A DNA stretch of 64,000 nt from Polyangiaceae bacterium (GCA_023150915.1 JAKLKA010000002.1:2338-66337), one strand, 5' to 3'. Shown: positions 6,554 to 64,000, numbered from the stretch's first letter. Made by a program: numbers and translations. The notes: generated by a model not told the origin, from the letters alone.

Positions 6554-7624
6554 GTGTTGCCCATCGAGAAGCTCGAGGCGGTCCACCGCCGCCACCAGGA
6601 GATCGAGCAGCTCTTGTGCGAGCCCGCGACCCTGTCCGAGCCAGCGCGCCTCCTCGCGCTCAATCGCGAACGCGCGCAGATCCAGCCGGTGGTGGCCGCA
6701 TTCGGCGAGTGGCGGGCCCTCGACCGGCAGATCCGCGAAGACCAAGAGGCGCTGGACGACCCCGAGCTGGGGCCGATGGTGCGCGAAGAGCTGCCCGGCC
6801 TGGAAGAGAAGCGCGCCGCGCTGGAGAGGCAGCTGCGCATCCTGCTTTTGCCCCAAGACCCCAGCGACGACAAGAACACCCTGCTCGAGATCCGGGCCGG
6901 AACCGGCGGCGAAGAGGCCGCGTTGTTCGCGGCCGATCTGCTCCGCATGTACTCGCGTTACGCCGAGCAGAAGGGCTGGCGGGTCGAGCTCTTGTCCCAG
7001 AGCGAGGCCAGCGCCGGCGGGGTCAAAGAGGTGATCTTGCTGATCACGGGAAACCGCGTGTACTCGAACCTGAAGTACGAAGGCGGCGTTCACCGCGTGC
7101 AGCGCGTGCCCGCCACCGAGGCTCAGGGGCGCATCCACACGTCCACGGCCACCGTGGCCGTCTTGCCCGAAGCCGACGACGTGGACGTGACCATCGACGA
7201 GAAGGACCTGCGCTTCGACATTGCCGCTTCGGGGGGCCCCGGGGGCCAGGGCGTGAACACCACCAACAGCGCCGTGCAAATCACCCACCTGCCGACCGGC
7301 ATGATCGTGAAGTGCCAAGACGAGCGTAGCCAGCTCAAGAACAAGAGCAAGGCGCTGAAGATCCTGAAGAGTCGTCTGCTCGACATCGAACAGCAGAAGC
7401 AAGACGACGCCCTGCGCGACGAGCGCCGCGGCATGGTCAAGAGCGGGGAGCGGTCGGAGAAGATTCGCACCTACAACTTCCCCCAGAACCGGCTGACCGA
7501 TCACCGCATCGGGCTCACGCTCTATCAGCTCGAGCGCGTGATGGAGGGCGACCTGGGCGAGCTCACGGACGCGCTGGTCGCCTTTCATCAGGCGGCCGAG
7601 CTCGAGCGGCAAGGTCTGGACTGA
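6554..7624 (+). CDS. prfA: Peptide chain release factor 1
   Basis: ORF 6305..7624 trimmed to GTG 6554, just after the upstream stop. RF1 PAT tripeptide (RVPATE), GGQ motif (SGGPGGQGVNTT), DERSQLKNK. Confidence 0.93.
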   Translation: MLPIEKLEAVHRRHQEIEQLLCEPATLSEPARLLALNRERAQIQPVVAAFGEWRALDRQIREDQEALDDPELGPMVREELPGLEEKRAALERQLRILLLPQDPSDDKNTLLEIRAGTGGEEAALFAADLLRMYSRYAEQKGWRVELLSQSEASAGGVKEVILLITGNRVYSNLKYEGGVHRVQRVPATEAQGRIHTSTATVAVLPEADDVDVTIDEKDLRFDIAASGGPGGQGVNTTNSAVQITHLPTGMIVKCQDERSQLKNKSKALKILKSRLLDIEQQKQDDALRDERRGMVKSGERSEKIRTYNFPQNRLTDHRIGLTLYQLERVMEGDLGELTDALVAFHQAAELERQGLD

Positions 7625-49934: not shown

Positions 49935-51134
49935 TCACCGCGCCACGTAGCGCGCGCGCGGTCTGAGCAAGAAGCCCTGTTCGCGCTGCTCGAGCGCGTG
50001 AGCAATCCAGCCCGCCGAGCGCCCCAGCGCGAACAGAGCGCTCGCGGCTCCGACCGGCAGCCCCAGCGCGATGCGCACCGCGACCAGACCCGCGTCCAGG
50101 TTCGGCGCCGGCTGCTCGGCCGCGTGCATCGCGCGCACCACGGCCTCGAGCACCTTCAGCCGGGGCGGGCGCGCGAGCGTCGCCCGCGCCCGCGCCAGCG
50201 CCAAGAGCTGTGCGCCGCGCGGATCGCCCGCCGGATAGAGCGGGTGACCGAAGCCCGCGAGGGCCTCACCGCGGCGCACGCGCTCCGCCAGCACCGCGCG
50301 GGCGCGCGCAGGGCTGCCGACCTCGTCCAGCAACGCTTCGACGCGATCCGAGGCTGCGCCGTGGGCGGGACCGCTGAAGGCCGCGAGCGCCGCCGTGATG
50401 CAAGCCGGGAGCGTGGCACCGGCCGAGGCCACCACACGCGCTGCGAACGCCGACACGTTGAGCTCGTGATCGGCGCACAGCACCAGCGCTTGCTCCACTC
50501 CGGCCACGCGCCGTTCGGTGGCCTCGACCCCGAAGCTTGCCAGCGCGGCCCGCGCCACCGTGCTCGCGCGCGCTGCGCTCGCGGCGCGGCGTGGGTCGGG
50601 TGCCAGGGCGACGGCCAGCGTGCGCACCAGCTGGCCTGCGTTCGCCAGGGGCGCACACAGCGGATCGCCGGGCGCCAGGGTGGGGGCGACGCACAGCAGG
50701 CGCTCGACCCAGGTAGTGGCCCCGGCGCTCCGGGCGACGGGAACGGTGCTCCGCATCTCCGGACGCTCCGCAGGCAGCGAGCCCGCCCAGAGCAGCGCGC
50801 ACACCGACTCGAAGGGCGTGCCCTGGCGCGCCAGCTCGACCGCCCACTGTCCGCGGTAGCGCGGTCCGCTCGCTCCGATCTCGGTGATGGACGACTCGAG
50901 CACGGGCTCGCCCCAGCGCAGCGCACCGCTCGCCACCGCCGCGTGGCCCCCGCGGGCGTCGCGTCGCGCGCGCAGCCGCAGGAGATCTGCTCGGGCGTAG
51001 AGCCGCGCGCGACCTTCGCCGGAAGGCACGCTCGTGACGAGCCCGCGGCTGGCATACGCATAGAGCGTGGGCAGCCGCACCCCAAGGAGCTTCACTGCCT
51101 GCTTCGCGCTCACGAAATCGGATGGTTGATTCAT
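49935..51134 (-). CDS. Citrate-synthase-family protein with N-terminal MerR/excisionase-like HTH
   Basis: N-terminus SAKQAVKLLGVRLPTLYAYASRGLV (HTH); CS-like core with GPAHGAAS and GFGHPLYPAGDPR. Confidence 0.75.
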   Translation of the reverse strand: MNQPSDFVSAKQAVKLLGVRLPTLYAYASRGLVTSVPSGEGRARLYARADLLRLRARRDARGGHAAVASGALRWGEPVLESSITEIGASGPRYRGQWAVELARQGTPFESVCALLWAGSLPAERPEMRSTVPVARSAGATTWVERLLCVAPTLAPGDPLCAPLANAGQLVRTLAVALAPDPRRAASAARASTVARAALASFGVEATERRVAGVEQALVLCADHELNVSAFAARVVASAGATLPACITAALAAFSGPAHGAASDRVEALLDEVGSPARARAVLAERVRRGEALAGFGHPLYPAGDPRGAQLLALARARATLARPPRLKVLEAVVRAMHAAEQPAPNLDAGLVAVRIALGLPVGAASALFALGRSAGWIAHALEQREQGFLLRPRARYVAR

Positions 51135-51179: not shown

Positions 51180-52298
51180 ATGAGCACCGGAGCAAATGGG
51201 CTGGAAGGCGTGGTCGTGGCCGATACCGCGCTGTCCGACGTGGACGGCGAGCGGGGCGAGCTGTGGATCCGCGGCGAGCCGGTCGAGCGCCTGGCCGTGC
51301 GCCACGCGTTCGCTGAAGTGCTGGGCTTGCTCACCACCGGCGAGCTGCCCGAGCCGACCGATGGCCGTATCCCGAGCCTGCTTTCCCGAGGCCGAAGCCT
51401 GGCGCACCGGCGCCTCTCGCAGCTCGGCGACGCCATCGACCAGCCCAACGCGATGGATGCGCTGCGCGCCGGCGTCGCACACTACCGAGCCGCCGATCTG
51501 GGCCCCGGCGACGAAGCGGCCGCAGTGCTCGCCGGGGTGGTCGCGACGCTGGCCGCGGCTTGGGCGTGTCGCCAGCGCGGTGAAGAGTTGCCCGAGCCCG
51601 ATCCGGCCGCCGGTCACGCCGACGACGTCTTGCGGCTCCTGGGGGCGCGACCGGGCCCCGCCGGGCGCGCGCTCGACGCTTACTGGATCGCGGTGATCGA
51701 TCACGGGCTGAATGCGTCGACGTTCGCGGCGCGCGTGGTCGCTTCGACCGGCTCCGATCTCATCAGCGCGGTGACTGCGGCGATCGGCGCGCTCAAGGGC
51801 CCGCTGCATGGTGGAGCGCCCGGCCCGGTGCTGGACATGCTCGACGCCATCGGCAGCGAGCCGAGCGCCGAGCCATGGCTCCGTCAGGAGCTCGCGGCCG
51901 GTCGCCGCATCATGGGCATGGGGCATCGCATCTACCGCGTGCGCGATCCCCGGGCGTTGGTCCTCGAGCAAGCGCTGAGCCGCTATCGCCAGGCGCTGGG
52001 CCAAGGCGCTGACCCCGTCGTGCGGCGGCTCGAGCTGGCCCGCCACGTCGAGCGCGTGGCCACGCGGCTCCTCTCCGAACGCCACCCCAGCCGCCCGCTG
52101 GCCGCCAACGTCGAGTTCTTCACCGCGGTCCTGCTCGAAGCCATCGGGGTTCCGCGCTCGCTCTTCAGTGCGATGTTCGCCGCGTCGCGCGTGGTCGGCT
52201 GGTGCGCGCACGTGGCCGAGCAGCGCGCCAGCGGGCGACTGATCCGACCCGCGTCGCGCTACGTGGGCGCACGCAGCGGGGCTGCCCCCGCGGCGTGA
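51180..52298 (+). CDS. Citrate synthase / 2-methylcitrate synthase family protein
   Basis: ORF 49998..52298 trimmed to ATG 51180; GLNASTFAARV, KGPLHGGAPG, GMGHRIYRVRDPR, ANVEFF. Confidence 0.85.
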   Translation: MSTGANGLEGVVVADTALSDVDGERGELWIRGEPVERLAVRHAFAEVLGLLTTGELPEPTDGRIPSLLSRGRSLAHRRLSQLGDAIDQPNAMDALRAGVAHYRAADLGPGDEAAAVLAGVVATLAAAWACRQRGEELPEPDPAAGHADDVLRLLGARPGPAGRALDAYWIAVIDHGLNASTFAARVVASTGSDLISAVTAAIGALKGPLHGGAPGPVLDMLDAIGSEPSAEPWLRQELAAGRRIMGMGHRIYRVRDPRALVLEQALSRYRQALGQGADPVVRRLELARHVERVATRLLSERHPSRPLAANVEFFTAVLLEAIGVPRSLFSAMFAASRVVGWCAHVAEQRASGRLIRPASRYVGARSGAAPAA

Positions 52299-52341
52299 GG
52301 CTCACCGCTTCAGCCGCTCGGCCGCGCGCACCAGGTCGACG
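52295..52341. repeat. Left copy of the 47-bp direct repeat (orphan copy of the anti-sigma/vWA gene 3' end)
   Basis: gtgaggctcaccgcttcagccgctcggccgcgcgcaccaggtcgacg; matches 59066-59112 at 46 of 47 positions. Confidence 0.95.
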
Positions 52342-52367
52342 CGCCATGGTGCTCGGTCCCTCACGCG

Positions 52368-53273
52368 TCACCCGGCGACCACCGGCAGGCCGTGCTCACG
52401 GAGCAGGCGCGCCGCGGCTTCGAGCTCGGCGTCACCCGGAGGCGTGGTGTCGGCATGGGGATAGCGCGTGCCATACAGCGCCGCTTTTCCCGATGCGAGG
52501 CGGTGGAACGGCTGGAGCTTCACCGCCGGGACCCGCGGGCGCTGGCGCAGCCAGCGCGCGATGGCCTCGAGCTCGTCCCGCCCGGAGTTGAACCCGGGGA
52601 CCAGCGTCACGCAGAGCTCGAGCTCCACGTCGGTGGCGAGCAGCGCGTCGAGGTTCTCCAGAATCGCGCGGCCGTCGACGCCCATCACGCGTGTGATCGC
52701 CGCGGCGTCGCAGTGCTTGAGGTCGAACAAGACCAGGTCTGCGCGTTCCGCCAGCTCCGCCACGTGTCTCCGGGGCCAGAGTCCCGCGGTCTGCACGGCG
52801 ACGTGGACGTTCCGGGTCGCCAGCTCGGCCGCGCACGCGAAGACGAAGTCGGCTTGCAAGAGGGGCTCACCGCCGGAGAAGGTCACGCCCCCGCCGGTGC
52901 CGCGGAAGAAGTCGGCGTCCACGAGCACCTCGCGCACCAGCTCCTCGACGCTCAGCTCCCGCCCGACCTTGCGCCGCGCGCCCGACGGGCAGACCTCCAC
53001 GCAGCGCCCCGCGAGATCACAGCCGTCGCGCCAGGCGTCGGTGCCGTCCAGCGCCCAGGCGCCCGGGTTCCGCGGGCAAGCCTCGACGCAGCGCCCGCAG
53101 CGAATGCAGAGTGCGGCGTCGTAGGCGATCTGAGGGCGGTGCGAGGTCCCCTCCAGGTTGTGGCACCAGGGGCAGCCGAGGGCGCAGCCCTTCAGGAACA
53201 CGACTGTTCTGAGCCCGGGTCCGTCGTGGACGCAGCCCTTCGAGACGTCGAAGACGCGCCCGAGTGGGCTCAC
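52368..53273 (-). CDS. Glycyl-radical enzyme activating protein (radical SAM)
   Basis: GTG 53273 (GTGA overlap with GRE stop); DGPGLRTVVFLKGCALGCPWCHN (CX3CX2C) plus CIRCGRCVEACP ferredoxin-like motif. Confidence 0.9.
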   Translation of the reverse strand: MSPLGRVFDVSKGCVHDGPGLRTVVFLKGCALGCPWCHNLEGTSHRPQIAYDAALCIRCGRCVEACPRNPGAWALDGTDAWRDGCDLAGRCVEVCPSGARRKVGRELSVEELVREVLVDADFFRGTGGGVTFSGGEPLLQADFVFACAAELATRNVHVAVQTAGLWPRRHVAELAERADLVLFDLKHCDAAAITRVMGVDGRAILENLDALLATDVELELCVTLVPGFNSGRDELEAIARWLRQRPRVPAVKLQPFHRLASGKAALYGTRYPHADTTPPGDAELEAAARLLREHGLPVVAG

Positions 53274-55843
53274 CCGTCGGCCCCGAACTCGGCGCGGGCG
53301 ATGATGTCGTCCTGGATGGACCGCCCCAGGTCGGTGAAACACGCCGAGTAGCCGGACACCTTGACGATCAGGTCGCGATGGCGCTCGGGATGAAGCTGCG
53401 CGTCGCGCAGCGTCTCGACCGAGACGAAGTTGGGCTGAAGGTGCATGCCGCCGAGCGAGAAGTAGGTCTTCAGCATGGCGGCGAAGGTGTCGAGGCCGCG
53501 CCCGTCTTTGATGAAGTTCGGGTGGAAGCGGATGTTGAGCGCGATGCCCGATGACGCCTGGGCCGGGGGGATCTTGGCCGCGCTGCGCATGCCGGCGTGT
53601 GGGCCGCCCGTGGGCTTCACCAGGTTGCTCGGCGAGACGCCGTTCGAGATCGGCGTGCCTCGCCGCCGGCCGTCGGGCGTGGCGCCGAGGAACAGCCCGT
53701 CGACCACGTGGTTGCCCAGCGAGAAGTAGGCGACGCGGTATCGTCCGCCGCGCACGTTGCGTCGCGCCTGGACGTGACCGTGGATGCGCTCGACGATACG
53801 CAACGCGAGGGCGTCCGCCTGGGCGTCGCCGCTGCCATACTTGGGCGATTCGCGCAGGAGGCGCTGGCGCAGCGCCTCTTGCCCGGCGAAGTCGTCGAGC
53901 ACGATGGCCACGAGCTCATTCAGTCCCAGCTCTTTCCGGTCGTAGACGAGGGTCTCGATGGCCAAGAGTGAGTCCACCAGCGTCGCCAGCCCGCGCACGT
54001 CGATGGAGGTGAAATCGTACTTCGCGCCGCCGGTGGTGACGTCGTTCGCGCCCTCGATGCAGCCCTGGATCAACGCCGAGACGTAAGGTGCCGGCAGCAT
54101 CTCGGCGTGGGCCTCGTCCTTGCCGGCGATGGCCCGGACCATGGTGTCGAGCTGGTGCGAGAGCTGCCGATCGAAGGCCGCGAAGAGCCCCTCGAAGCTG
54201 TCGAAGTGCGAGGGGTCGCCGCTCGAGAAGCCGGCTTGTTGCCCGGGGGCCGCGGGTGGGAAGGCCCCGTTCGTCAGCGTGAGCATCAGTGCCGCCGGCA
54301 GCACGAAGTCGTGACCGGCCACACAGCCCTGGGTGTCGCCGTGCCCGCAGGTCTCGACGCAGCCCACGACGGTGTAGTCGCGCGCGTCCTCGTCCGAGTA
54401 GCCGTCGGCGCGCAGGCCGGGGACGATGGCCTCGTCGTTGTAGAACGCGATGCCGTTGGTGTGCCGGAAGACCTCGCAGGCGCGACGCACGAACCCTGCC
54501 GGCGTGCCGGCGTGCAGGCGCACACACAGCTGGTTCACGGCGCCGCGCATCTCCGCGTAAGCGTCGAGCGTGAGCTCGGACAGCTCGTTGGTGGCATCGC
54601 TGCCCGAGGGCGTCACTCCCCCGAGGGTCACGCAGTGCTGGCTGTTGCCGAGCACGGCGTTCGACTCCATGCCCACCTCGGGTGTCGGGCTCACGTTCGA
54701 GGACAACTTCAGGAAGTATTCCTGCAAGAGCGCGGTGGCCTCGGCGCGCTCGAGCGCGCCCGAGCGCAAGTCCTTCTGGAACAGCGGATAGAGGTACTGG
54801 TCGATGCGTCCCACCCCGAAGACATCCATCGTGCCGAACTGGATCTCGCCCACCACCTGGGTCATCCACGCAGACTGGAGCGCCTCGTGGAAGCTCGACG
54901 CGGGCAAGCGCGGGACCCTGCGGCAGTGCTCGGCGATGCGCCCGAGCCGGCGCCGCTCGTCGGCGCTCGTGGCCTCGCGCGCCTGCGCCTCGGCCAGCTC
55001 CGCGAAACGCTCGGAGTAGCGGATCGCCGCCTCCAGGCTGAGGATCACTGCCTGGAGGAACGCCTTGCCGCGCGAGTCCCCGGGGTCGAGCCGCGTGAGC
55101 TTCTCGTGCGCCCGCCGGATCAGCTCGGCCATTCCCAGCTCGACGACCTGGTCCAGGCCCAGGCACAGGTGGCCTTGCACGTCGTGGCAGTAGACGACGG
55201 GTGTCGGGTTCGCGAAGGCGAGCTCGTGACGCAGTCCGAGCAGGTTCTTCAGCCGGCGCAGGCTGGGGGGCGCGTGCAGGTTGGCCCCCAGGATCTTCTG
55301 CAGGCTGTCCCTGCCCACATAGCGAACGAAGCGGGCCGCGTCGCGCCAGCCGCGAGGGCTCGGTCGCGTGGAGACGACGCCCCAGCGCCGCCATTTGTCG
55401 GCCTTCAGGTCGTGCAGCGTGCGCCCGTCCCAGTAGGGCAAGATTTCGTTCCAGAAGCAGCTGCGGTCCTCGTCGGAGATCTTGAAGGGCTTGGCCTTCT
55501 TCTCCAGAACGTCGAGCTCCATCTGGAGCACGCGCAGGAAATCACCCCGGTCGACCGACAGCGGTGTCGACAGGAAGCGCTCGGTCTTGGTCCCTGCCAG
55601 GTGCTCGTCGGCGTAGATGAAGATGCGCTGCTTCTCCAGCGTACGCTCCAGCGCGCGCGCGGCGCGCAGGGCCGGGTCCTGTCCCTCGGTCTCCCGGTAG
55701 ACCGCCGTGTAGTGGCGGGCGCGCGCCAGGCAGATCTCGTAGTCGGCCGTGAGCAAGCGCTCCTTCATGCGGCGCACGCGCGGCGCCAACCCCGGTCGCG
55801 GTGCGGGCGCGGACACGTCGAGCGACACGCCCTGGTCGGTCAT
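53270..55843 (-). CDS. Glycyl radical enzyme, PFL2 / dehydratase-lyase-like family
   Basis: 857 aa; thiyl loop VVGCVETCGHG; C-terminal glycyl radical motif IVKVSGYSACFTDL. Confidence 0.9.
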   Translation of the reverse strand: MTDQGVSLDVSAPAPRPGLAPRVRRMKERLLTADYEICLARARHYTAVYRETEGQDPALRAARALERTLEKQRIFIYADEHLAGTKTERFLSTPLSVDRGDFLRVLQMELDVLEKKAKPFKISDEDRSCFWNEILPYWDGRTLHDLKADKWRRWGVVSTRPSPRGWRDAARFVRYVGRDSLQKILGANLHAPPSLRRLKNLLGLRHELAFANPTPVVYCHDVQGHLCLGLDQVVELGMAELIRRAHEKLTRLDPGDSRGKAFLQAVILSLEAAIRYSERFAELAEAQAREATSADERRRLGRIAEHCRRVPRLPASSFHEALQSAWMTQVVGEIQFGTMDVFGVGRIDQYLYPLFQKDLRSGALERAEATALLQEYFLKLSSNVSPTPEVGMESNAVLGNSQHCVTLGGVTPSGSDATNELSELTLDAYAEMRGAVNQLCVRLHAGTPAGFVRRACEVFRHTNGIAFYNDEAIVPGLRADGYSDEDARDYTVVGCVETCGHGDTQGCVAGHDFVLPAALMLTLTNGAFPPAAPGQQAGFSSGDPSHFDSFEGLFAAFDRQLSHQLDTMVRAIAGKDEAHAEMLPAPYVSALIQGCIEGANDVTTGGAKYDFTSIDVRGLATLVDSLLAIETLVYDRKELGLNELVAIVLDDFAGQEALRQRLLRESPKYGSGDAQADALALRIVERIHGHVQARRNVRGGRYRVAYFSLGNHVVDGLFLGATPDGRRRGTPISNGVSPSNLVKPTGGPHAGMRSAAKIPPAQASSGIALNIRFHPNFIKDGRGLDTFAAMLKTYFSLGGMHLQPNFVSVETLRDAQLHPERHRDLIVKVSGYSACFTDLGRSIQDDIIARAEFGADG

Positions 55844-57639
55844 GCGAACAGCTCCTCTTCGGTCTTCAGGGTCAAACCGTCACTATCCAAGAGGCGCGCG
55901 GCGGGTCCCTCGACCTTCGGCAGCTCGTAGGCGAAGAAGAAGCGGAACGCGCTCAGCTTGCTGCGATAGAAGCGGGCGTCGGCCTCGGATGGGTCACGCT
56001 CGAGCCCGCGCTCAGCCGTCATCGCCTGACGCAGCCATTGCCATGCGACCGCCACCGTGCCGAAGACCTCGAGGTAGAGGGTAGCATCGGCCAGGAAGAG
56101 ATCGATCTTCCCCTCGAGAGCCAGGCCGGTGAGGTGCTGCGTTACCGCCGTGAGCCGATCGAGCGCTGCCTGGAGCTGCGCGGCGTGCGCGCCCAGCCCG
56201 GCGACGCCGCGCGCTTCGCTGATGCTCGTGCCCACCTCGTCCAGGAACAGGAACATGGCCTTCCCGCCGTCCCGCACCACCTTGCGACCGAGCAGGTCGA
56301 GCGCCTGGATGCCGGTCGTGCCCTCGTGAATGGTGTGGATGCGGACGTCGCGATAGTACTGCTCGAGCGCGAAGTCGGCGCAGTAGCCGTAGCCACCCAG
56401 GCACTGGAGGCCCTGGCTCACCGCCAGGATGGCCTGCTCTGCGGGGTAGGACTTGGCCGCGGGAGTGAGCAGATCCAAGAGCAGCTCGCAGCGCTCCCTC
56501 GCGTCACCCTGCAGGGTCTGCGCGAGGTCGGAGTAGTGCGTGCACTGAAGCACCAGCGACAGCGACCCCTCGACGACTGCGCGCTGGAACAGCAGCATGC
56601 GCTTCACGTCCGCGTGCTCGATGATCGGCACCTGCGCCTGCGCGGGATCCTTGCTGGTGATGGGCCGGCCCTGCGGGCGATGGCGCGCGTAGTCGAGCGC
56701 GGCGTGGTAGGCCGCCGAGGCGATGGCGGTCGCGCCCAGCCCCACCTCGATCCGCGCCTCGTTCATCATCTGGAACATGTAGCGCAGGCCCGAGTGCGGC
56801 TGTCCCACGAGCCACCCGCGACAGTCGCCCGCGTCGCCGAGAGAGAGCTGGGTGATGGGCGCGCCGCGGTAGCCCACCTTGTGATAGACGCTGGTGCAGG
56901 TGACGTCGTTGTCGACGAGCCCGGAATCCGTGGGCCGGCGGTCGGGCACGACGAAGAGCGAGATCCCCTTGACCCCGGCGGGGGCGCCGTCGATGCGGGC
57001 GAGCAGCAGGTTGACGCCGTTCTCCGCCTGGTCGTGCCGCGCTGCCGAGATGAAGATCTTCTGCCCGTGGATCAGGTAGTGCCCCTCGGTCGTGGGCGTG
57101 GCGCGGGTGCGGATGTCGGAGAGCGACGAGCCGGCCTGCGGCTCGGTGAGCGCCATCGTGCCTTGCCACTCGCCGGCGTACATCTTCGGCAGGTAGAGGG
57201 CGCCGAGCTCCTCGGCGCCGAACGAGGCCAAGAGGTGTGCGGCCCCGGCGGTGAGAGCCGGAAAGACGCTGGTCGAGTAGTTCGCCGCCGCGAGGATGGC
57301 GCGGAACGCCGTCATCACCGTGCGCGGGATCTGCAGCCCGCCGTGCGCAACGGGGACGTCCGCGTTGATCCAGCCCCCCTGCCCGCACTCGCGCAACAGT
57401 GCCCGGATAGACGGGTGCACGCGAACCCGTCCGTCGATCAGCACCGGAGGCTCCTGGTCCATCTCGCGGAAGGGAGGCCAGAGGACCTCGCGACCGAGCT
57501 TGTGCGCCGTCGCCAGGGCGAGGTCGAAGGTCTCCCGGCTGTGGTCGGTGAAGGGCGCGTGCTCCGTGAGCGACTCGACTCCGAACTGTTCGTACAGCAG
57601 GAATTCGAGGTTCCGCGCGTCGATGACGGTGGGGGCCAT
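55840..57639 (-). CDS. Long (599 aa) acyl-CoA dehydrogenase with C-terminal extension
   Basis: TEPQAGSSLSD, GQKIFIS, YYRDVRIHTIHEGTTGIQALDL; ATGA overlap with GRE. Confidence 0.88.
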   Translation of the reverse strand: MAPTVIDARNLEFLLYEQFGVESLTEHAPFTDHSRETFDLALATAHKLGREVLWPPFREMDQEPPVLIDGRVRVHPSIRALLRECGQGGWINADVPVAHGGLQIPRTVMTAFRAILAAANYSTSVFPALTAGAAHLLASFGAEELGALYLPKMYAGEWQGTMALTEPQAGSSLSDIRTRATPTTEGHYLIHGQKIFISAARHDQAENGVNLLLARIDGAPAGVKGISLFVVPDRRPTDSGLVDNDVTCTSVYHKVGYRGAPITQLSLGDAGDCRGWLVGQPHSGLRYMFQMMNEARIEVGLGATAIASAAYHAALDYARHRPQGRPITSKDPAQAQVPIIEHADVKRMLLFQRAVVEGSLSLVLQCTHYSDLAQTLQGDARERCELLLDLLTPAAKSYPAEQAILAVSQGLQCLGGYGYCADFALEQYYRDVRIHTIHEGTTGIQALDLLGRKVVRDGGKAMFLFLDEVGTSISEARGVAGLGAHAAQLQAALDRLTAVTQHLTGLALEGKIDLFLADATLYLEVFGTVAVAWQWLRQAMTAERGLERDPSEADARFYRSKLSAFRFFFAYELPKVEGPAARLLDSDGLTLKTEEELFA

Positions 57640-57642
57640 CCT

Positions 57643-58404
57643 TCAGCCTTCCTGCCGTGCCGACAGCTCGGCGATGCACAGGGCCTGATTGCGGTCCTCG
57701 AGCCGAATCGCGTCCTCCAGGCTGCCCCCTCCGCTGTTGCAGTCGAGGGCCTCTTTCGTCAGGCGCAAGCCCAGCGCCGATTTGCTCTCCAGGTTCTTCG
57801 CCAGCGCCAGCGCCTGACCCATGAGCGCGGCGTCGTCGACGATCGCCTGTAGAAAGCCGAGCCGGTGCGCCTCTTCGGCGGGCAAGAAGTCGCCGGTCAT
57901 CAGGTAGCGCGCGGCGTTCGCCGTGCCGATGGCCCGAGGGAGCAGCCACGACGAGCCCATGTCTGCGCCGCCGAGGCCCAGGTTGACGTAGGCCGCCTGG
58001 AACCTGGCGCCCGGCGTGCCCAGGCGGATGTCGCAGGCCATGGCCATGGAGAAGCCGGCGCCGACGCACACGCCGTTGATCGCACCGATGATCGGCTGCG
58101 GGCAGCGCCGCATGCGCAGGATCAGCTCGGAGAACGTGCGCTGCGCCGTGTACGCGCTCTGGGGAGACAGACCACCCGCGGGGCTGACCAGGACCGGGTC
58201 CTTGATGTCGAGCCCGGCGCTGAAGGCGCGCCCGGCGCCCGTCAGCACGATCACCCGCGTCTCGGTGTCGTTCATGCGTTCGTCGAGGAACGCTCGAAGC
58301 TCGTCCCGCATCACGTGGTCGATGGCGTTCAAGCAGCGGGGGCGCTCGAGCGTCAGGATGGCAGTAGCGCCGTCTTGGTCGTGTCGGATCGTTTCGTAGG
58401 CCAT
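57643..58404 (-). CDS. Enoyl-CoA hydratase/isomerase (crotonase) family protein
   Basis: ORF 57643..58566 trimmed to ATG 58404; VIVLTGAGRAFSAGLDIK, AINGVCVGAGFSMAMACD. Confidence 0.88.
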   Translation of the reverse strand: MAYETIRHDQDGATAILTLERPRCLNAIDHVMRDELRAFLDERMNDTETRVIVLTGAGRAFSAGLDIKDPVLVSPAGGLSPQSAYTAQRTFSELILRMRRCPQPIIGAINGVCVGAGFSMAMACDIRLGTPGARFQAAYVNLGLGGADMGSSWLLPRAIGTANAARYLMTGDFLPAEEAHRLGFLQAIVDDAALMGQALALAKNLESKSALGLRLTKEALDCNSGGGSLEDAIRLEDRNQALCIAELSARQEG

Positions 58405-58477
58405 CGAGATCCCTCGGCGTGTATCCTGGACCCGTTCAGCCGTCGAAGGCCAGCCCGCTGGCGACGAGAGGTGAAGG

Positions 58478-59050
58478 ATGAGCCCGAGCTTCGTTCCACT
58501 GCAGGACCCGCCGTCGTTCCAGCGTTGGGCGGCCGCCCAGTGGCGCAGGCCGAACGACTCGACCATCTACGGCGCCGTCGAGCTCGACATGACCCGGCCG
58601 CTGGCGCTGATCGAACGTCTGCGCCACGAGTGGGGGATCCGGCTGACGCTCACCCACCTGGTCACGAAGGCGCTGGCCCTCGCCATCGCGAAGTATCCGC
58701 GCACCAACGTGAAGGTGCGGTTCTGGGGCAAGCTGGAGCAACGCCAGAGCGTGGACGTGATCGTGCTGGTCGCCGGAGAGGGTGGGCGCGATCTGTCGGC
58801 GCACCGCATCACCGGTGCGGACCAGCTTCCGCTGCGTGAGCTGGCGACCCAGGTCATCGAAGCCAGCGAGCGCATTCGACGCGACGAAGATCCGCAGTTC
58901 CGCCAGAGCCGTGAGCTGGTGACGCGAATGCCCTGGTGGCTGATGCGCCCCTTCCTGTCGCTCGCGAGCCTCTGCATGAACGAGCTCCACCTCGACCTGT
59001 CGAAGCTGGGGCTGCCGGTGGATCTCTTCGGCGTCGGCATGGTCACGAGC
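58478..59050 (+). pseudogene. 3'-truncated 2-oxoacid-dehydrogenase-type acyltransferase catalytic domain
   Basis: Recognisable E2-like domain up to ...DLFGVGMVTS. It then switches at 59051 into repeat-derived sequence read antisense to the vWA gene; the expected C-terminal DHRxxDG catalytic motif is missing. Confidence 0.6.
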
Positions 59051-59112
59051 GCTCTTCAGTGCGATGTGAGGCTCACCGCTTCAGCCGCTCGGCCGTGCGC
59101 ACCAGGTCGACG
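59051..59112. repeat. Right junction repeat: 17 nt identical to 52160-52176 fused to the 47-bp direct repeat
   Basis: gctcttcagtgcgatgt + gaggctcaccgcttcagccgctcggccgtgcgcaccaggtcgacg; equals 52160-52341 minus exactly 120 nt. Confidence 0.95.
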
Positions 59113-60932
59113 AATTCTCGCCGGCGCTCGTCCAGCTCGCCCGAGCTGGCCAGGCGCACGGTATCGGCGAAGCTCGAGCTGCCCTTGTGCGGCGAGTCCC
59201 TGAGCAGCATGCCGAGCTCTGCAACCGCGGCGGCGAAGCGGAAGTCGTCCGACTCCTTCGCGTCGGTGTCGCGCACGACGACCTCGATCAGCTGGCTCTC
59301 GCTGCCCGCCGGCTGCTTGTAGCGGAGCTTCACCGTCGCGAGCTCGCCCCGCGCCGCCTTGCCGGTGGGCGTGCCCGGCGCCTGGTACTTCAGTGGATCG
59401 TTGCCCGGCCCGGTGGGAGCGCCGCCCGCGGGCACGATCTCGTACAGCGCCGTCACGGTGTGGTCGGCGCCGATCTCGCCGGCGTCCTTCTTGTCGTCGT
59501 TGAAGTCGTGGTGAGAAAGCACGCGGTTCTCGTAGCCGATCAGCCGGAACTCGGAGACCTCGGCAGGGTTGAATTCGATCTGGATCTTCACGTCCTTGGC
59601 GATGGTCATCAGCGTGCCGGTGGCTTGCTCGACCAGCACCTTCTTCGCCTCGTTCAGCGTGTCGATGTAGGCGTAGTTGCCGTTGCCCTTGTCGGCCAGC
59701 TTCTCCATGGTCGAGTCGTTGAAGTTGCCGGCGCCGAAGCCCAGCACGCTCAAGAACACCCCGGTCTTGGCCTTCTTTTCCACCAAGTCGACCAGATCGC
59801 TCTGGCTGGTGACGCCGACGTTGAAGTCGCCGTCCGTCGCCAAGAGCACGCGGTTGACGCCGCCCTTCACGAAGCCCTGCTTCGCGAGCTCGTAGGCGAG
59901 CTGGATGCCTTCACCCCCGTTGGTGGAACCGCCAGAGCTCAGGCGATCCAGCGCGCCGAGGATGGTGGCCCTCTGGTCACCGGGCGTGGGCGGCAGCACG
60001 GTGCCCGCCGAGCCGGCATAGGCCACGATCGACACGCGGTCCACCGCGTCGAGCTGCTGTACCAGGAGCGAGAACGCCTGCTTGAGCAGCGGGAGCTTGT
60101 TCTCGTCGCTCATCGAGCCCGAGGTGTCGACCAAGAACACCAGGTTGGTGCCGGGCACGTCGGCGGGTGCGACGTGCTTGCCCTTGAGACCCAGCTTCAG
60201 CAGCCGGTGCCCGCTGGCCCAGGGCGCCGCGCCGACCTCGCTCGAGACCGAGAACGGGCGATCGCCCGTCGGCTCGGGATAGACATAGGTGAAGTAGTTG
60301 ATCATCTCCTCGATGCGCACCGCGCCCTTGGGGGGCAGCTGGCCGTCCCTCAGATGACGGCGGACCAGCGAGTACGACGCGGTGTCGACGTCGATCGAGA
60401 AGGTCGAGCGCGGATCGGTGGCGACGCGCACGAAGGGGTTGTCCGCGAAGGCATCGTAGGCGTCGCGGTTGAACCGCTGACCCTGATTCACAACCGGCAT
60501 GTCCTCGGACGAAGCCGCCGACGCGGCCGTCCCCGGGCCCAGGGTTCCTTTCTCTTTGCCCTCGGCCTTGTCCATCGACACCGACGCGACCTCGGCCCGT
60601 CGCCCCTGGGTGGTCACGAAGAGCATCGCGCCGGCCGCGGCGGCGGTGACGGTCATGGCGGCGAAGGCCACGGCCCGCAGGCGACGCTTCGGCTTCGGCG
60701 CACCCTGCGACGCCTGCTCGGCGATGCGCTCGCGCCGCGGCGCGTCCAGCGCCGGCTTCGGCTCAGAGCCGAGCTCCTCGCGCAGAGCGCCGAGCGTGCT
60801 CTTTACGCCTGCCAGCTCCTCGCGCAAGAGCTCGGACTCCGCGAGCTCGGCCTCGAATCGCGCCAGCTCTTCGCCGCTGAGCTCGCCGAGCGCATAGTCC
60901 GTGACGCGGGGATCTTCGTGGGCAGTGCTCAT
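59073..60932 (-). CDS. Anti-sigma-like N-terminal domain / TM / vWA (YfbK-like) protein
   Basis: ORF 59073..61595 trimmed to ATG 60932; N-terminus VTDYALGELSGEELARFEAEL, one TM, MIDAS LVFLVDTSGSMS; 4-nt overlap with the ECF sigma gene. Confidence 0.85.
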   Translation of the reverse strand: MSTAHEDPRVTDYALGELSGEELARFEAELAESELLREELAGVKSTLGALREELGSEPKPALDAPRRERIAEQASQGAPKPKRRLRAVAFAAMTVTAAAAGAMLFVTTQGRRAEVASVSMDKAEGKEKGTLGPGTAASAASSEDMPVVNQGQRFNRDAYDAFADNPFVRVATDPRSTFSIDVDTASYSLVRRHLRDGQLPPKGAVRIEEMINYFTYVYPEPTGDRPFSVSSEVGAAPWASGHRLLKLGLKGKHVAPADVPGTNLVFLVDTSGSMSDENKLPLLKQAFSLLVQQLDAVDRVSIVAYAGSAGTVLPPTPGDQRATILGALDRLSSGGSTNGGEGIQLAYELAKQGFVKGGVNRVLLATDGDFNVGVTSQSDLVDLVEKKAKTGVFLSVLGFGAGNFNDSTMEKLADKGNGNYAYIDTLNEAKKVLVEQATGTLMTIAKDVKIQIEFNPAEVSEFRLIGYENRVLSHHDFNDDKKDAGEIGADHTVTALYEIVPAGGAPTGPGNDPLKYQAPGTPTGKAARGELATVKLRYKQPAGSESQLIEVVVRDTDAKESDDFRFAAAVAELGMLLRDSPHKGSSSFADTVRLASSGELDERRREFVDLVRTAERLKR

Positions 60933-61459
60933 GACGTCCTCCCGGCGGCGCGCATCGGCAGCTCGGAGTCGCGGGCGATCTCCCGCTGGATGCGCTTGAT
61001 GGCCGTGTGCAGGATGAACCCGACGTTGCTGGTCGAGAGGCCCATGATCTTCGCGATCTCCTTGTAGCTGAGCCCGCCGTCGAGCTTGAGCAGCAGTGCT
61101 TCGCGCTCGCGCTCGGGCAGCGCTTCGAGCGCGACGCCGACTCGACTCAGGGTTTGTCTCCGTTCGAGCTTCTGGATGGGTCCACTGTCCGGGGCTTCGT
61201 TCACGTCGGCGTCCTCCAGGCTGCGAAGGCGCTGCGCTTTGCGGCGCGCGTCGACCGCCCGGTGCTTGCACACCGTGAAGAGCCAGGCGGCCAGGTGCCC
61301 TTCGACCGCCTCGCGCTCTGCTTTGCAGAGCTCGAGGAACGTCTCTTGGACCACGTCTTTCGCCTGGGCTCGGTCGACGAGGGTCGCTGCGTAACGAAGA
61401 AGCGCGGCTTCGTACCGGGACAGGGCTTCCATCACCCAGCGCACCTTTCCGTCCTGCAT
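60929..61459 (-). CDS. ECF-type RNA polymerase sigma factor
   Basis: Region 2 AKDVVQETFLEL...AWLFTVCKHRAVDARRK; region 4 LSYKEIAKIMGLSTSNVGFILHTAIKRI. Confidence 0.88.
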   Translation of the reverse strand: MQDGKVRWVMEALSRYEAALLRYAATLVDRAQAKDVVQETFLELCKAEREAVEGHLAAWLFTVCKHRAVDARRKAQRLRSLEDADVNEAPDSGPIQKLERRQTLSRVGVALEALPEREREALLLKLDGGLSYKEIAKIMGLSTSNVGFILHTAIKRIQREIARDSELPMRAAGRTS

Positions 61460-61470
61460 CGCCTTCGAAG

Positions 61471-61495
61471 AGACAACGGGGCAGCCCCGGGTTTC
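61471..61495 (-). promoter_or_regulatory. Weak candidate ECF-type promoter (GAAAC-N16-GTCT) upstream of the sigma gene
   Basis: Minus-strand read agGAAACccggggctgccccgttGTCTcttcgaaggcgATG; next to an unusual A7 run (61500-61506). Confidence 0.2.
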
Positions 61496-61899
61496 TTAGA
61501 AAAAAACGCGCTTGCTCCGAAGAAGGCGAAAGTGCGTGGGATTGTCGCCGGGTGGACGGGCTTCCGGTGACCCGCGGTCGGCTCCAGAACGGCAAAGCCT
61601 CGGGGCGCCTTCCACCTCAGGCCCGGATGTTCGCGGACAATCGCCTGCGTGGCCGGCTCATCCGTGAGGAGCTCGGGGGCGATGTGTCCGGCGCCGTCGA
61701 GCCGCTCGAGGAACTCGAGCTCGTAGCGAAACTTGTCGGATCTTCGCGTAGTTCCACCCGCCCCCAGCGCGGGCTGGTTTCGTCGTCGCTCTCGTGGTGA
61801 AGGAAGGCGGGGCGGAATGCGTGTGCCTGTGGGTCGACATCTGCGCACGGGCTTCCGGTTGTCCCGGGCCGGCCCCAGGTACTTGGGCGGAGGCGAACG

Positions 61900-63174
61900 G
61901 TGGACGCAAGGGGGGACCGCGCCGAGCTTGCCACGCGCTACCGCGCGGTGCGCGACGGCACCGAGGCGCTCGCTCGCATGCTGTCCGCCGAGGACCAGCA
62001 GCTGCAGTCGATGCCGGACGCGAGCCCGACCAAGTGGCATCGCGCACACGTCACTTGGTTCTTCGAAGAGTTCCTGCTCCGCCCGAGCGGCGTCCCGCCC
62101 GTCGACGAGCGCTACCGGTACCTGTTCAACTCGTACTACGACGCGGTCGGTCCGCGGCACCCGCGACCACGCCGCGGCATCCTCTCTCGGCCCAACGCGA
62201 CCGAGGTCGAGGCCTACCGGCGGGCGATCGACGGTCGCATGCTCGAGCTTCTGCAGAGCGTGGATGATGCCCGGCTGGCCGAGCTTCGCCCCTTGCTCGA
62301 GCTCGGGCTGGCGCACGAAGAGCAGCACCAAGAGCTGATCTTGACCGACATCGTGCACGCGTTCTCCGACAGCCCGCTCCTGCCCGCGGTGCGCCAGGCG
62401 TCCGCGCGGCCCGCGCTGCCCTCCGCCGAGGCGCTTCCGCTCCGCTTCCTGGAGCACGCCGGCGGCGTGTGCGAAGTGGGTGCGGGCGCCGGCGCCGGGT
62501 TTCACTTCGACAACGAGGGGCCGCGCCACCGCGTGTTCCTCGAACCGTACGCGCTCGCGTCGCGCGCCATCACGGTGGGCGAGGTGATCGCCTTCATTCG
62601 CGCAGGGGGCTATCTGAGCCCGGCCCTCTGGCTCTCGGAGGGCTGGGACTGGGTGCGTGCGCGAGGCCGCGAGGCCCCAGCGTACTTTCGCCTGGATGGC
62701 GGGCACGCGGTGGTGTTCGGCGTGGATGGCGAGCGCGAGGCGCTGGACGCCGAGCCTGCCGCGCACCTCTCTTACTTCGAGGCCGACGCGCTCGCGCGCT
62801 TCCTCGGGGGCCGGCTGCCCACCGAGCACGAGTGGGAGCACGCGGCGGCGCGCATCGATCCACGGGACGGCAACTTCCGCGAGAGCGGCGCGTTCGCGCC
62901 GCGACCGGTGTCGACCGAGTCGTCGACGCTGCAGCTCTTCGGCGACGTCTGGGAGTGGACGTCGTCGGCTCATGCGCCCTATCCGGGCTTCTCGCCTCGG
63001 GCCGGCGCCGTCGGGGAGTACAACGGCAAGTTCATGGTGAGCCAGCTGGTGCTGCGCGGAGGCTCGTGCCTCTCGCCCCTCGGTCACCTGCGCAGCACGT
63101 ATCGAAACTTCTGGCCCCCGGGCACGTTCTTCCAGATGAGCGGCGCGCGCGTCGCACGTTCGCTAGCAGGGTAG
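61900..63174 (+). CDS. egtB: Ergothioneine biosynthesis sulfoxide synthase EgtB
   Basis: GTG 61900 preceded by GGAGG; DinB-like N-terminus (PTKWHRAHVTWFFEEF, HEEQHQEL); FGE-sulfatase-like C-terminus (GDVWEWTSS, LRGGS). Confidence 0.88.
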   Translation: MDARGDRAELATRYRAVRDGTEALARMLSAEDQQLQSMPDASPTKWHRAHVTWFFEEFLLRPSGVPPVDERYRYLFNSYYDAVGPRHPRPRRGILSRPNATEVEAYRRAIDGRMLELLQSVDDARLAELRPLLELGLAHEEQHQELILTDIVHAFSDSPLLPAVRQASARPALPSAEALPLRFLEHAGGVCEVGAGAGAGFHFDNEGPRHRVFLEPYALASRAITVGEVIAFIRAGGYLSPALWLSEGWDWVRARGREAPAYFRLDGGHAVVFGVDGEREALDAEPAAHLSYFEADALARFLGGRLPTEHEWEHAAARIDPRDGNFRESGAFAPRPVSTESSTLQLFGDVWEWTSSAHAPYPGFSPRAGAVGEYNGKFMVSQLVLRGGSCLSPLGHLRSTYRNFWPPGTFFQMSGARVARSLAG

Positions 63175-63180
63175 GCCCGC

Positions 63181-64000
63181 ATGCACGACCCGATCGCCGA
63201 CGAGGTGCGCCGCGGCCTGACCGCGCCCGCGAAGTCTTTGCCGCCGCACCTGTTCTACGACGAAGAGGGCTCGCGCCTCTACGAGCAGATCACCGAGCTC
63301 GAGGAGTACTACCCGACCCGGACCGAGCGCGCGATCCTCGCGCGCCACGCGCCGACGATGGTCGCCCTGGCCGCGAGCGACAGCCAAGAGCCGCTGTCGG
63401 TGGTCGAGCTGGGAGCGGGCTCGGCCGACAAGACTCGCCTGATCCTCTCCGCGCTGGTCGCCACGCAGCAGCGCGCGGTCTACCTCCCGGTGGACGTCTC
63501 CCCCAGCGCGCTCGAAGCCGCGCGCGCTCGCATCGAGGCGGAGATACCAGGCATCGAGGTGCGCCCCTTCGTGGGGCGGCACGAGGCAGCGAGTGAGGCC
63601 ATTTCCCGCTTGGGCCCGCGCCGGCTGGTGCTGTTCATCGGCAGCTCCATCGGCAACTTCGAGGACGACGCCGCGGTGAGCTTGCTCCGCGCCGTGCGCC
63701 GCGGGCTCGTTCCCGGCGACGCGCTCTTGCTCGGGACCGACATGAAGAAGTCCCCCGCGCGCCTGCTGCCTGCCTACGACGACGCCCGCGGGGTGACCGC
63801 AGAGTTCAACAAGAACATCCTGGCGCGCATCAACCGCGAGCTGGGGGGCCGCTTCGAGCTCGAGCGATTCAAGCACGTGGCGCTGTGGAACGCGGCCGCG
63901 TCGCGCGTCGAGATGCACCTCGAGAGCCGCGTGGACCACTCCGTGCGCATCGACGCGCTGGGGCTCGACGTGAGCTTTCGCCGGGGCGAGCGCATCCACA
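63181..64000 (+). CDS. egtD: L-histidine N-alpha-methyltransferase EgtD (3' end beyond window)
   Basis: Hand translation from ATG 63181: LPPHLFYDEEGSRLYEQITELEEYYPTRTERAIL, ELGAGSADKT, FIGSSIGNF, AYDDARGVTAEFNKNILARINREL. No stop in window, so absent from the ORF track. Confidence 0.88.
   Translation, partial: MHDPIADEVRRGLTAPAKSLPPHLFYDEEGSRLYEQITELEEYYPTRTERAILARHAPTMVALAASDSQEPLSVVELGAGSADKTRLILSALVATQQRAVYLPVDVSPSALEAARARIEAEIPGIEVRPFVGRHEAASEAISRLGPRRLVLFIGSSIGNFEDDAAVSLLRAVRRGLVPGDALLLGTDMKKSPARLLPAYDDARGVTAEFNKNILARINRELGGRFELERFKHVALWNAAASRVEMHLESRVDHSVRIDALGLDVSFRRGERIH

Follow-up and report, generated by a model that had tools for sequence, protein, structure and literature searches.

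Insertion of a chromosomal cassette fragment between two convergent genes in a Polyangiaceae bacterium, supported by an empty site in sister contigs

Rearrangements of the MMBIR/FoSTeS type comprise several joints per event, a short templated segment from nearby, duplication by upstream re-entry and small microhomology at the joints. Transposons duplicate a short target of constant length, roughly 2-14 bp. When I-SceI breaks were repaired by NHEJ in Streptomyces ambofaciens, the healed sites are reported to have gained between 30 bp and 18.8 kb of captured DNA, among it pieces of 42 and 83 bp that came from close to the break (Hoff et al., PMC5869714). Furthermore, illegitimate recombination during natural transformation has been proposed as an acquisition route for genes that are not themselves mobile (bioRxiv 10.1101/2023.11.22.568220).

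In this study we focus on a 6,708-nt block lying between a citrate synthase (CS) gene and an anti-sigma/vWA gene, in a window of 64 kb (the whole stretch of DNA analysed, 64,000 nt). The locus probably carries the scar of a one-off, recombinase-independent (illegitimate) insertion that occurred through break repair or template switching. It is a well documented insertion scar, ordinary in its mechanism, and not a new mobile element, since a sister species retains the uninterrupted site.

Table 1 Coordinates of the features at the locus, in positions of the window.
Feature	Position	Strand	Evidence or content
Citrate synthase (CS), left target gene, intact	51180..52298	+	Pfam Citrate_synt 8.4e-96; NCBIfam PRK12350 above cutoff
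Native 18-mer within CS, source of the scrap	52159..52176	+	Exact match to 59050-59067; once in empty-site CS
CS 3' coding segment	52177..52294	+	In left junction and empty sites, missing at right junction
Left 47-bp direct repeat	52295..52341	+	CS stop plus orphan last 12 codons and stop of anti-sigma gene
Inserted block, 6,708 nt	52342..59049		Absent from empty-site relatives L103, L104, L107
Spacer from left repeat to activase stop, 26 nt	52342..52367		Unique in window; not alignable to L095 or L096
Glycyl-radical-enzyme (GRE) activase, radical SAM	52368..53273	-	Pfam Radical_SAM; TIGR02494 275.7 bits, above cutoff
GRE, 857 aa, PFL2/glycerol-dehydratase type	53270..55843	-	PFL-like 8.5e-145 and Gly_radical
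Acyl-CoA dehydrogenase (ACAD), 599 aa	55840..57639	-	Pfam Acyl-CoA_dh_N, _M, _1, _C
Deletion in sister strains L105 and L106, 1,365 nt	57161..58525		ACAD N-terminus, whole ECH, divergent intergenic region, acyltransferase codons 1-16
Enoyl-CoA hydratase (ECH), 253 aa	57643..58404	-	Pfam ECH_1 7.6e-44
Truncated E2-like acyltransferase (2-oxoacid_dh)	58478..59049	+	Codons 1-191 of about 270 kept
CS-derived 18-nt scrap	59050..59067	+	Copy of 52159-52176
Right 47-bp direct repeat	59066..59112	+	Functional anti-sigma/vWA 3' end (...FVDLVRTAERLKR*); YfbK_C profile matched to last position
Anti-sigma/vWA (YfbK-type), right target gene, intact, 619 aa	59073..60932	-	Pfam vWF_A, VWA, YfbK_C
ECF sigma factor, co-oriented with anti-sigma gene	60929..61459	-	Pfam Sigma70_r2 and r4_2

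The two junctions and the empty site

Gene identities were confirmed by Pfam and GC3 (Table 1). The CS protein has 372 aa, the same length as in relatives with an empty site, and the anti-sigma/vWA protein of these relatives likewise has 619 aa. The original prediction had described a 47-bp direct repeat with a single C>T difference, and both copies were located. A scan of the window allowing up to 3 mismatches gave these 2 matches and no others, against 0 in 100 shuffles. The copies are identical at 46 of 47 positions, the sole mismatch being C at 52325 and T at 59096, and their longest common exact stretch is 30 nt. As had also been proposed, the TGA of the CS gene (52296-52298) lies within the left repeat and the anti-sigma stop (59073-59075) within the right one. 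The YfbK_C domain natively ends in the residues encoded by the 47-mer, the profile being matched to 184/184, and the anti-sigma C-terminus of the homologue L009 reads ...FVELVKKAEGL. It does not belong to a dispersed repeat family, an eventuality raised at the outset: besides the two copies in the window, its 30-nt core gave one match in the JGI metagenomes, which is the empty site itself, and none in IMG/VR.

Next to the right repeat lies a piece of native CS coding sequence, identical to its source at 18 of 18 positions; allowing up to 2 mismatches, the window contains 2 matches (shuffle mean 0.01). The predicted CS scrap is thus an exact copy, but 18 nt long (52159-52176 = 59050-59067) and not 17. 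The donor acyltransferase sequence could account for the first base of the scrap as well, and the final two, GT, coincide with the start of the right 47-mer. Consequently the right junction corresponds to 52159-52341 minus 120 nt, this being the gap left by the CS segment 52177-52294 once the shared GT is counted, and the earlier reading of the junction as an upstream CS/repeat segment with a 120-nt deletion holds with the segment so extended. Each junction bears a scrap of the gene on the opposite side, which requires that CS and anti-sigma were formerly adjacent.

Indeed, the predicted empty site, with CS directly convergent on the ECF/anti-sigma-vWA pair, was found on three contigs from a sister lineage: L103 (JGI Ga0073899_10001113), L104 (ENA ERZ27258503) and L107 (ENA ERZ27258501). 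They are about 92-94% identical at the nucleotide level to both flanks of the window and about 99% identical to one another. In all three, CS and anti-sigma/vWA are convergent, only 3 nt separate their stop codons, and there is a single 47-mer, where the window has two flanking copies. Their alignments jump from 52341 to 59066, and those to the left and right flanks overlap by exactly 47 nt. The occupied locus exceeds the empty one by 6,771 nt, made up of the block (6,708), 16 nt found only in the scrap and the second 47-mer (47). In L104 the gene order is conserved to either side of the site, through EgtD-EgtB-ECF-anti-sigma in one direction and through CS, HTH-CS and a gene for a 241-aa product in the other.

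Moreover, the NCBI MAG contig JAPKGM010000018.1 and the Logan assembly of SRR17665565 each match the window at 100% identity over both junctions. One or other junction was recovered from additional samples, and the junctions also occur in strains 99.1-99.75% identical, from other samples; occupied strains differ from one another by substitutions inside the repeats. The occupied structure is not a mis-assembly, as had been considered beforehand, because it recurs with identical junctions in independent assemblies. The empty site, the exact 47-nt overlap, the non-dispersed nature of the 47-mer and this recurrence together support, by sequence comparison, an insertion between two genes originally arranged tail to tail that duplicated its target and orphaned a gene 3' end, as originally envisaged.

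At repeat position 31, every occupied strain has T in the right 47-mer, where the left one retains the ancestral C; at position 40, the left copy has a derived G in every such strain. Two of the 47 positions already distinguished the copies in the ancestor that these strains share. Later mutation would fit these differences, as would a copy imported from another allele.

The inserted block and its probable source

The block begins 26 nt beyond the activase stop and ends at 59049/59050 inside the acyltransferase gene. The original prediction had placed its bounds in this way, and the right end coincides exactly with the point, 59050, where nucleotide homology to four relatives stops. The spacer at 52342-52367 is presumably donor sequence downstream of the activase. 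In tetranucleotide composition the block does not stand out from the window (r = 0.917; mean for the window 0.907, sd 0.019). The best PDB matches of the GRE are a diol dehydratase (5i2a) and HypD (6vxc), and its score lies under every NCBIfam equivalog cutoff. Truncation has removed the FDHRVVDG catalytic motif (DHRxxDG) from the acyltransferase, whose open frame extends past the junction as far as 59203, into the 3' end of the anti-sigma gene. Full-length homologues have 269-271 aa, with an alignment that diverges past ...GMVTS, and in clusters at 90% identity or more the protein occurs only in truncated forms. We predict that the truncated enzyme is dead.

Two relatives, L095 and L096, carry the same five genes (GRE, activase, ACAD, ECH, acyltransferase) in the same order, with a full acyltransferase of 270 aa. 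The block is 78-81% identical to these cassettes at the nucleotide level, from 52381/52387 to 59050. They lie at other loci, with different flanks on both sides, and have neither flanking direct repeats nor, within 10 kb, an integrase. Relatives with the block, an intact acyltransferase and no repeats had been named as evidence against insertion; L095 and L096 are literally such relatives, but their loci are unrelated and the insertion is not refuted. They offer a picture of the donor cassette, and by this comparison the block is a fragment of a conserved, larger, non-mobile chromosomal cassette of five genes. Furthermore, the rest of the cassette is decaying in some strains: L105 and L106 show the later deletion listed in Table 1, and the corresponding forms of 438 aa for ACAD and 204 aa for the acyltransferase were found in several samples.

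The expected absence of an integrase, a transposase and a tRNA was borne out. Pfam detected no integrase, recombinase or transposase domain in the block genes, in the 47 GC3-called ORFs of the window or in precomputed Pfam tables of the contigs, and the window holds no tRNA. The block has no plasmid or replicon genes (Pfam), and no terminal inverted repeats beyond chance at its ends. An integrase-mediated integrative element was rejected for want of a site-specific recombinase in the window ORFs and contig tables. A discrete element recurring as a unit was rejected too, as the right end falls at codon 191 of a 270-codon gene and the L095/L096 cassettes lie elsewhere without repeats. A transposon or insertion sequence was set aside with no transposase and only chance-level inverted matches at the block ends, and a transposon target-site duplication with 47 nt plus an 18-nt scrap in place of a short fixed length. 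The analogy with integrative elements drawn in the original prediction is one that we do not retain: the block is an arbitrarily cut, truncated piece of an ordinary chromosomal cassette, with no recombinase, tRNA or terminal repeats.

Proposed course of the insertion and its alternatives

Capture by end joining is suggested by the arbitrary ends of the block (26 nt past a stop; mid-gene), by the tiny microhomology at the two assessable joints and by a filler 18-mer drawn from within CS, 136 nt upstream of the site. Both of these joints are on the right side, with at most 1 nt (C) of microhomology between block and scrap and at most 2 nt (GT) between scrap and 47-mer. In the ancestral state, CS (+) and anti-sigma/vWA (-) would have been convergent, with 3 nt between their stops. 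A linear fragment, cut at arbitrary points from the five-gene cassette past the activase stop and at the acyltransferase codon given above, would have been joined in here while a break or a collapsed fork was being repaired. The chromosomal ends joined to the fragment would have overlapped by 47 nt, owing to a staggered break, unequal ends of sister copies or backward re-entry of a switching polymerase. Both flanking genes would have stayed intact because the 47 nt duplicated contain the ends of both, and the right joint would have received its 18-nt filler from CS as template. In the aftermath the acyltransferase would have been dead and the remaining cassette left to decay in some strains. 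The enzymology may have been Ku/LigD-type end joining or replicative template switching (ku and ligD are absent from the 64-kb window), and the fragment may have come from an unsampled relative or from a second copy since lost. A duplication of 47 nt, or of 183 nt, far exceeds the usual fill-ins of overhangs in bacterial end joining, and an extra assumption is therefore needed. It further counts against an illegitimate insertion that direct repeats of this size around an island are also expected from site-specific or homologous integration of circular DNA.

The duplication may have arisen as 47 nt plus filler in a single step, or as 183 nt followed by a 120-nt deletion. In the latter variant, which we regard as unlikely, the target 52159-52341 was duplicated and the right copy then lost 120 nt by GCGATGT/GCGGCGT slippage. 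The exact length of the missing segment agrees with it, the deletion ends share GT within similar heptamers, and another microhomology deletion demonstrably occurred within the block. However, it requires a longer target duplication and one more event, and no strain with the undeleted 183-nt duplication was seen, as 7 of 7 right junctions read alike (window, L002, L003, L005, L105 and L106).

A Campbell-type single crossover appears quite improbable. Here, a circle already carrying the 47-mer and the scrap would have recombined with the chromosomal 47-mer by RecA-dependent homology, which would give exactly the topology observed, that of a single-crossover integrant with the homology duplicated on both sides; the 2 of 47 ancestral differences would fit one copy from a different allele. 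Against this, the truncated cassette, the CS scrap and the anti-sigma end would have had to be joined earlier in the circle, and as that joining is itself an illegitimate event at the same locus, the crossover adds steps and removes none. The block lacks plasmid or replicon genes, no circular precursor carrying the 47-mer was seen in the collections searched, and 47 bp is close to the lower limit for efficient homologous recombination.

There is little to recommend a mobilisable island integrated in trans, with the 47-mer as attL/attR, a circle of 6,771 bp (block, scrap and 47-mer) and an integrase supplied by another part of the genome or by a helper element. The direct repeats around the block, the single copy in the empty site and the targeting of gene 3' ends with both genes kept intact are all as in islands that target 3' ends. 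However, no recombinase was found in the block or in the 64-kb window, no tRNA is present, the block stops within a gene that is intact in relatives, and intact cassettes elsewhere have no such repeats or integrases; the 30-nt core occurs nowhere else in JGI metagenomes or IMG/VR, and the block decays by random deletion. It is more doubtful still that the 47-mer is a working attachment site, from which a recombinase-less cargo island of 6,771 bp could yet be excised and re-inserted by an integrase encoded elsewhere, the CS scrap being a fossil of an earlier, imprecise excision; if true, this would be a trans-mobilised metabolic island in Myxococcota targeting a convergent-gene junction. Finally, a chimeric join at a repeated k-mer is hardly credible even though some Logan contigs break off close to a junction (59078; 52433-52455), given the junctions identical in the NCBI MAG, the window's assembly and Logan SRR17665565, their presence in related strains from other samples, non-identical repeat copies whose longest exact common stretch is 30 nt and strain-to-strain substitutions within the repeats.

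Comparison with known systems

Genomic islands directed at the 3' ends of genes have several features in common with the illegitimate insertion favoured here: direct repeats tens of bp long around the insert, a one-copy empty site in a relative and preserved target 3' ends. Unlike them, the locus has no integrase, excisionase or tRNA, its insert ends inside a truncated gene, its repeat is unused elsewhere and its cassette is non-mobile chromosomal DNA in relatives.

To our knowledge, illegitimate recombination events of the Acinetobacter baylyi type replace or delete recipient DNA, with no 47-nt duplication. Homology-facilitated or double illegitimate recombination in A. baylyi and SPDIR resemble the present case in that dedicated recombinases play no part when foreign or ectopic DNA is joined at microhomologies, although SPDIR inserts are tiny (bioRxiv 10.1101/2023.11.22.568220).

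Several joints, a scrap templated nearby, small microhomology and a duplication explicable by upstream re-entry are likewise found in MMBIR/FoSTeS. The locus differs in that its microhomology is minimal (at most 1 and 2 nt) and that 6.7 kb would have been copied with no template surviving in the sampled genomes.

In S. ambofaciens the break was induced, whereas here a natural event is deduced from comparative sequence, and a target duplication such as the 47 nt seen here is not mentioned for the captures in the sections of that report that we cite (PMC5869714). Both organisms have high-G+C genomes, and the 42- and 83-bp local pieces of S. ambofaciens have a counterpart in the 18 nt taken from 136 nt away (PMC5869714). 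Moreover, as in NHEJ capture in S. ambofaciens, the insert is a kilobase-sized piece of chromosome joined without a recombinase, with arbitrary ends and little or no microhomology at the joints (PMC5869714).

Junctions and gene order of the insertion

The insertion lies in ordinary core chromosome (prfA, nadC, birA-like, pdxJ, acpS), between a citrate synthase (CS) gene and a convergent gene for a vWA/YfbK-type anti-sigma protein. The original prediction held that the inserted block is bracketed by a 47-nt direct repeat with one C/T difference, which was borne out by reading of the sites as well as by repeat and pattern searches: the copies differ only at C 52325 versus T 59096. It also placed a 17-nt scrap of the CS gene at the right junction; this scrap is present and exact, but it is one base longer, its 18 nt being identical to 52159-52176. 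Shuffled sequences contain neither the 47-mer nor the 18-mer, of which the window has exactly two copies each. The GT closing the scrap is also the GT opening the right repeat copy, so that the right junction equals 52159-52341 minus 120 nt. The CS stop codon (TGA) sits within the left copy, and the right copy encodes the native C-terminus of the anti-sigma protein, where the YfbK_C profile (Pfam) matches to the last position; a 75% identical homologue on a more distant contig (L009) ends in ...FVELVKKAEGL. The possibility that the 47-mer is a dispersed repeat was rejected, in view of its two copies in the window and the match of its core to one JGI contig.

Genes and junction features at the insertion, in window positions (genes called from GC3 phase, translations and Pfam/NCBIfam)
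Feature	Position	Strand
HTH + citrate-synthase-like protein	49935-51134	-
Citrate synthase (CS)	51180-52298	+
47-mer, left copy	52295-52341	
Inserted block (6,708 nt)	52342-59049	
Glycyl-radical-enzyme (GRE) activase	52368-53273	-
PFL2-type glycyl radical enzyme (GRE)	53270-55843	-
Acyl-CoA dehydrogenase (ACAD)	55840-57639	-
Enoyl-CoA hydratase (ECH)	57643-58404	-
E2-like acyltransferase (acylT)	58478->	+
CS scrap	59050-59067	
47-mer, right copy	59066-59112	
vWA/YfbK-type anti-sigma	59073-60932	-
ECF sigma	60929-61459	-

No tRNA is present in the 64-kb window, its 47 GC3-called ORFs and the precomputed annotations yielded no domain of an integrase or transposase, and inverted repeats at the block ends do not exceed chance. 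Over 14 nt, the end of the left 47-mer and the opening 14 nt of the block are 79% complementary, a match discarded as noise for this G+C content. At the joint between block and scrap (marked by a slash), the donor-like side reads ...ACGAGC/CTSGGC, S being C in L095 and G in L096-L098 (relatives carrying the cassette genes), and the target side reads ...GCGCTC/GCTCTT, with at most one base (C) common to both; scrap and 47-mer have GT in common. At the left joint, the 26-nt stretch 52342-52367 occurs only once in the window and aligns to neither L095 nor L096.

The 399-aa product divergent from CS combines a citrate-synthase-like domain with an HTH (HTH_17/MerR_1) at its N-terminus and may be an enzyme-derived ligand-sensing regulator; the gene pair is kept in L104, an empty-site contig, and in the more distant L102. 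The stretch from CS to TreS-Mak is variable (window 52299-64000 and beyond; L102 2504-7157; L094 1-10000). In L102, with 83% CS identity, a Na+/H+ exchanger alone lies there, and in the window lineage the stretch holds the block, the ECF/anti-sigma pair, the EgtB/EgtD ergothioneine genes, Rrf2 and a PIN/Phd toxin-antitoxin pair. L102 was too distant to serve as a polarising outgroup and was dropped.

Occupied and empty sites

Mis-assembly was rejected, since the junctions recur in independent assemblies and in diverged strains. The GRE protein is encoded on contigs, 100% identical to the window, of an NCBI MAG (GCA_026647795.1) and of several independent Logan assemblies; two of these contigs, L002 (JAPKGM010000018.1) and L003, cross both junctions. 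Four further contigs (L099, L100, L105 and L106; 99.1-99.75% identical) also contain the junctions, with substitutions of their own within the repeats. Look-ups by exact protein sequence (CS, GRE, anti-sigma) returned occupied contigs alone. Contigs L005, L006, L007 and L093, from at least three Logan samples, terminate within 23 nt of each other (52433-52455), ~100 nt inside the block, for which a population variant and a coverage drop are both possibilities. The final 74 nt of JAPKGM010000018.1 (15258-15331) mismatch the window after 13.4 kb of 100% identity, probably as a contig-end artefact.

Against JGI metagenome contigs, a 30-nt core of the repeat matched a single contig (L103, Ga0073899_10001113) in which the window flanks are contiguous: its positions 11-2490 correspond to window 61543-59066 and 2444-3292 to 52341-51493, with an overlap of exactly 47 nt. 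Two further empty sites, L104 (ERZ27258503) and L107 (ERZ27258501), were reached through anti-sigma homologues of 92% amino acid identity. L104 retains synteny on both sides (EgtD-EgtB-ECF-anti-sigma // CS, HTH-CS, 241-aa gene), its anti-sigma gene ending at 6635 and its CS gene at 6639, which leaves 3 nt between the stop codons. The three contigs are ~99% identical to one another and 92-94% identical to the window, and represent a sister species of the window lineage. The predicted insertion between convergent genes is thus supported by actual empty sites. The occupied state is longer than the empty one by 6,771 nt, made up of the block, 16 nt of scrap alone and the second 47-mer. Each junction holds an orphan piece of the opposite gene; CS and anti-sigma must therefore have been neighbours before the insertion, which makes the empty state the ancestral one. 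A scan of the genome collection with the anti-sigma protein gave L009 (75% amino acid identity) as best relative, with only the ECF/anti-sigma pair in common and no flanking synteny; this contig gave no information on the empty site.

The cassette, its source and its decay

L095 and L096 carry the same five-gene cassette, with order and orientation kept and with unrelated sequence to either side; within 10 kb of these cassettes there is no integrase, nor do direct repeats flank them. In all four relatives, nucleotide homology to the window (78-81%) begins just within the activase gene and stops at exactly 59050. Past ...GMVTS, the CS scrap replaces LGMHGIDEG...FDHRVVDG of the relatives, so that acylT is truncated after codon 191, without its catalytic motif; full-length homologues have 269-271 aa, the best being 85% identical. 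In composition the block cannot be told from the rest of the window, which speaks neither for nor against transfer from a related genome. No acylT or GRE was found at 86%-98% identity, and the 90% clusters, in which acylT occurs only in truncated form, hold members of the occupied lineage alone (NCBI and Logan), so that the empty-site lineage apparently lacks the cassette. Likewise, no full-length acylT or cassette at least 90% identical, as an intragenomic donor or an empty-lineage copy, was found. The fragment would come from a relative not yet sampled, or from a copy since lost.

The payload (window 52368-58404; L095 3877-10813; L096 3930-10813) is a conserved cassette in which the GRE is accompanied by the activase, a long ACAD, ECH and a 270-aa E2-like acylT. 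The GRE is of the PFL2 type, with an N-terminal extension of ~220 aa; it falls below every NCBIfam equivalog cutoff, and among solved structures diol dehydratase and hydroxyproline dehydratase come nearest to it. The occurrence of a GRE in Polyangia-like genomes is notable in itself.

Within the occupied lineage, the cassette is decaying. L105 and L106 (GCA_963169825.1 and SRR33667359; ~99.4% identical) are without window 57161-58525, a deletion of 1,365 nt (L105 12406-12407, L106 3176-3177) with 2-3 nt of junction microhomology, which takes the ACAD N-terminus, all of ECH, the divergent intergenic/promoter region and the acylT start; shortened forms of ACAD (438 aa) and acylT (204 aa) are seen in several samples. 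In the window, the acylT frame stays open to 59203 (58478-59203, +) through read-through junk and overlaps the anti-sigma 3' end by 131 nt; annotation pipelines make of it a 241-aa "2-oxo acid dehydrogenase", whereas it is to be regarded as a pseudogene, and calling it as a gene over anti-sigma is a caution for annotation.

The repeats have changed as well. All occupied strains have C at position 31 and G at position 40 of the left copy and T at position 31 of the right copy, and both positions are C in the empty sites. In the right copy, position 40 (window 59106, cf. 52335) is the ancestral C in L105/L106 and G in the window type, which may reflect short conversion between the repeats or parallel mutation. 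In the orphan left copy of L099 (99.75% identical), two clustered changes at 11130-11134 (TTCAG to CTCGG) generate a local direct repeat, CTCGGCCGCTCGGCC, and have the look of a templated multi-base mutation in sequence that has become non-coding.

Route of entry and comparison with known captures

Bacterial genomic islets often carry no mobility genes, and their route of entry is usually unknowable, as their junctions are eroded. Here each of three states can be read to the base, namely the empty site of the sister species, the donor-like intact cassettes of relatives and the occupied site, which retains the 47-bp duplication and the 18-nt filler. Judged from its sequence, the feature is best read as a recombinase-free insertion scar. 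It offers a natural, sequence-level case of genes gained without a recombinase by a large, high-G+C genome, with visible decay thereafter, and is useful as a worked case.

In the simplest account, a break or fork collapse within the 3 nt between the convergent genes would have led to a single illegitimate event, in which a linear cassette fragment would have been captured, a 47-nt overlap of the chromosomal ends would have preserved both genes, and 18 nt of local filler would have been added. The same product would be expected from serial template switching, and sequence alone separates neither these two routes from each other nor either of them from a two-step version, in which a 183-nt duplication was followed by a 120-nt deletion. 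Site-specific integration acting in trans and Campbell-type integration of a circle are possible, but each requires extra, unsupported components.

Within the literature on double illegitimate recombination and NHEJ, one directly relevant precedent comes from a study of Streptomyces ambofaciens (PMC5869714), in which pieces of 30 bp to 18.8 kb were captured at induced breaks in an NHEJ-dependent way, near-break pieces of 42 and 83 bp among them. NHEJ is associated with large, high-G+C genomes in a survey that makes no statement on myxobacteria (PMC7719229). Set beside these captures, the scar is a new and unusually well-preserved case of a known type of event, rather than a new element or mechanism.
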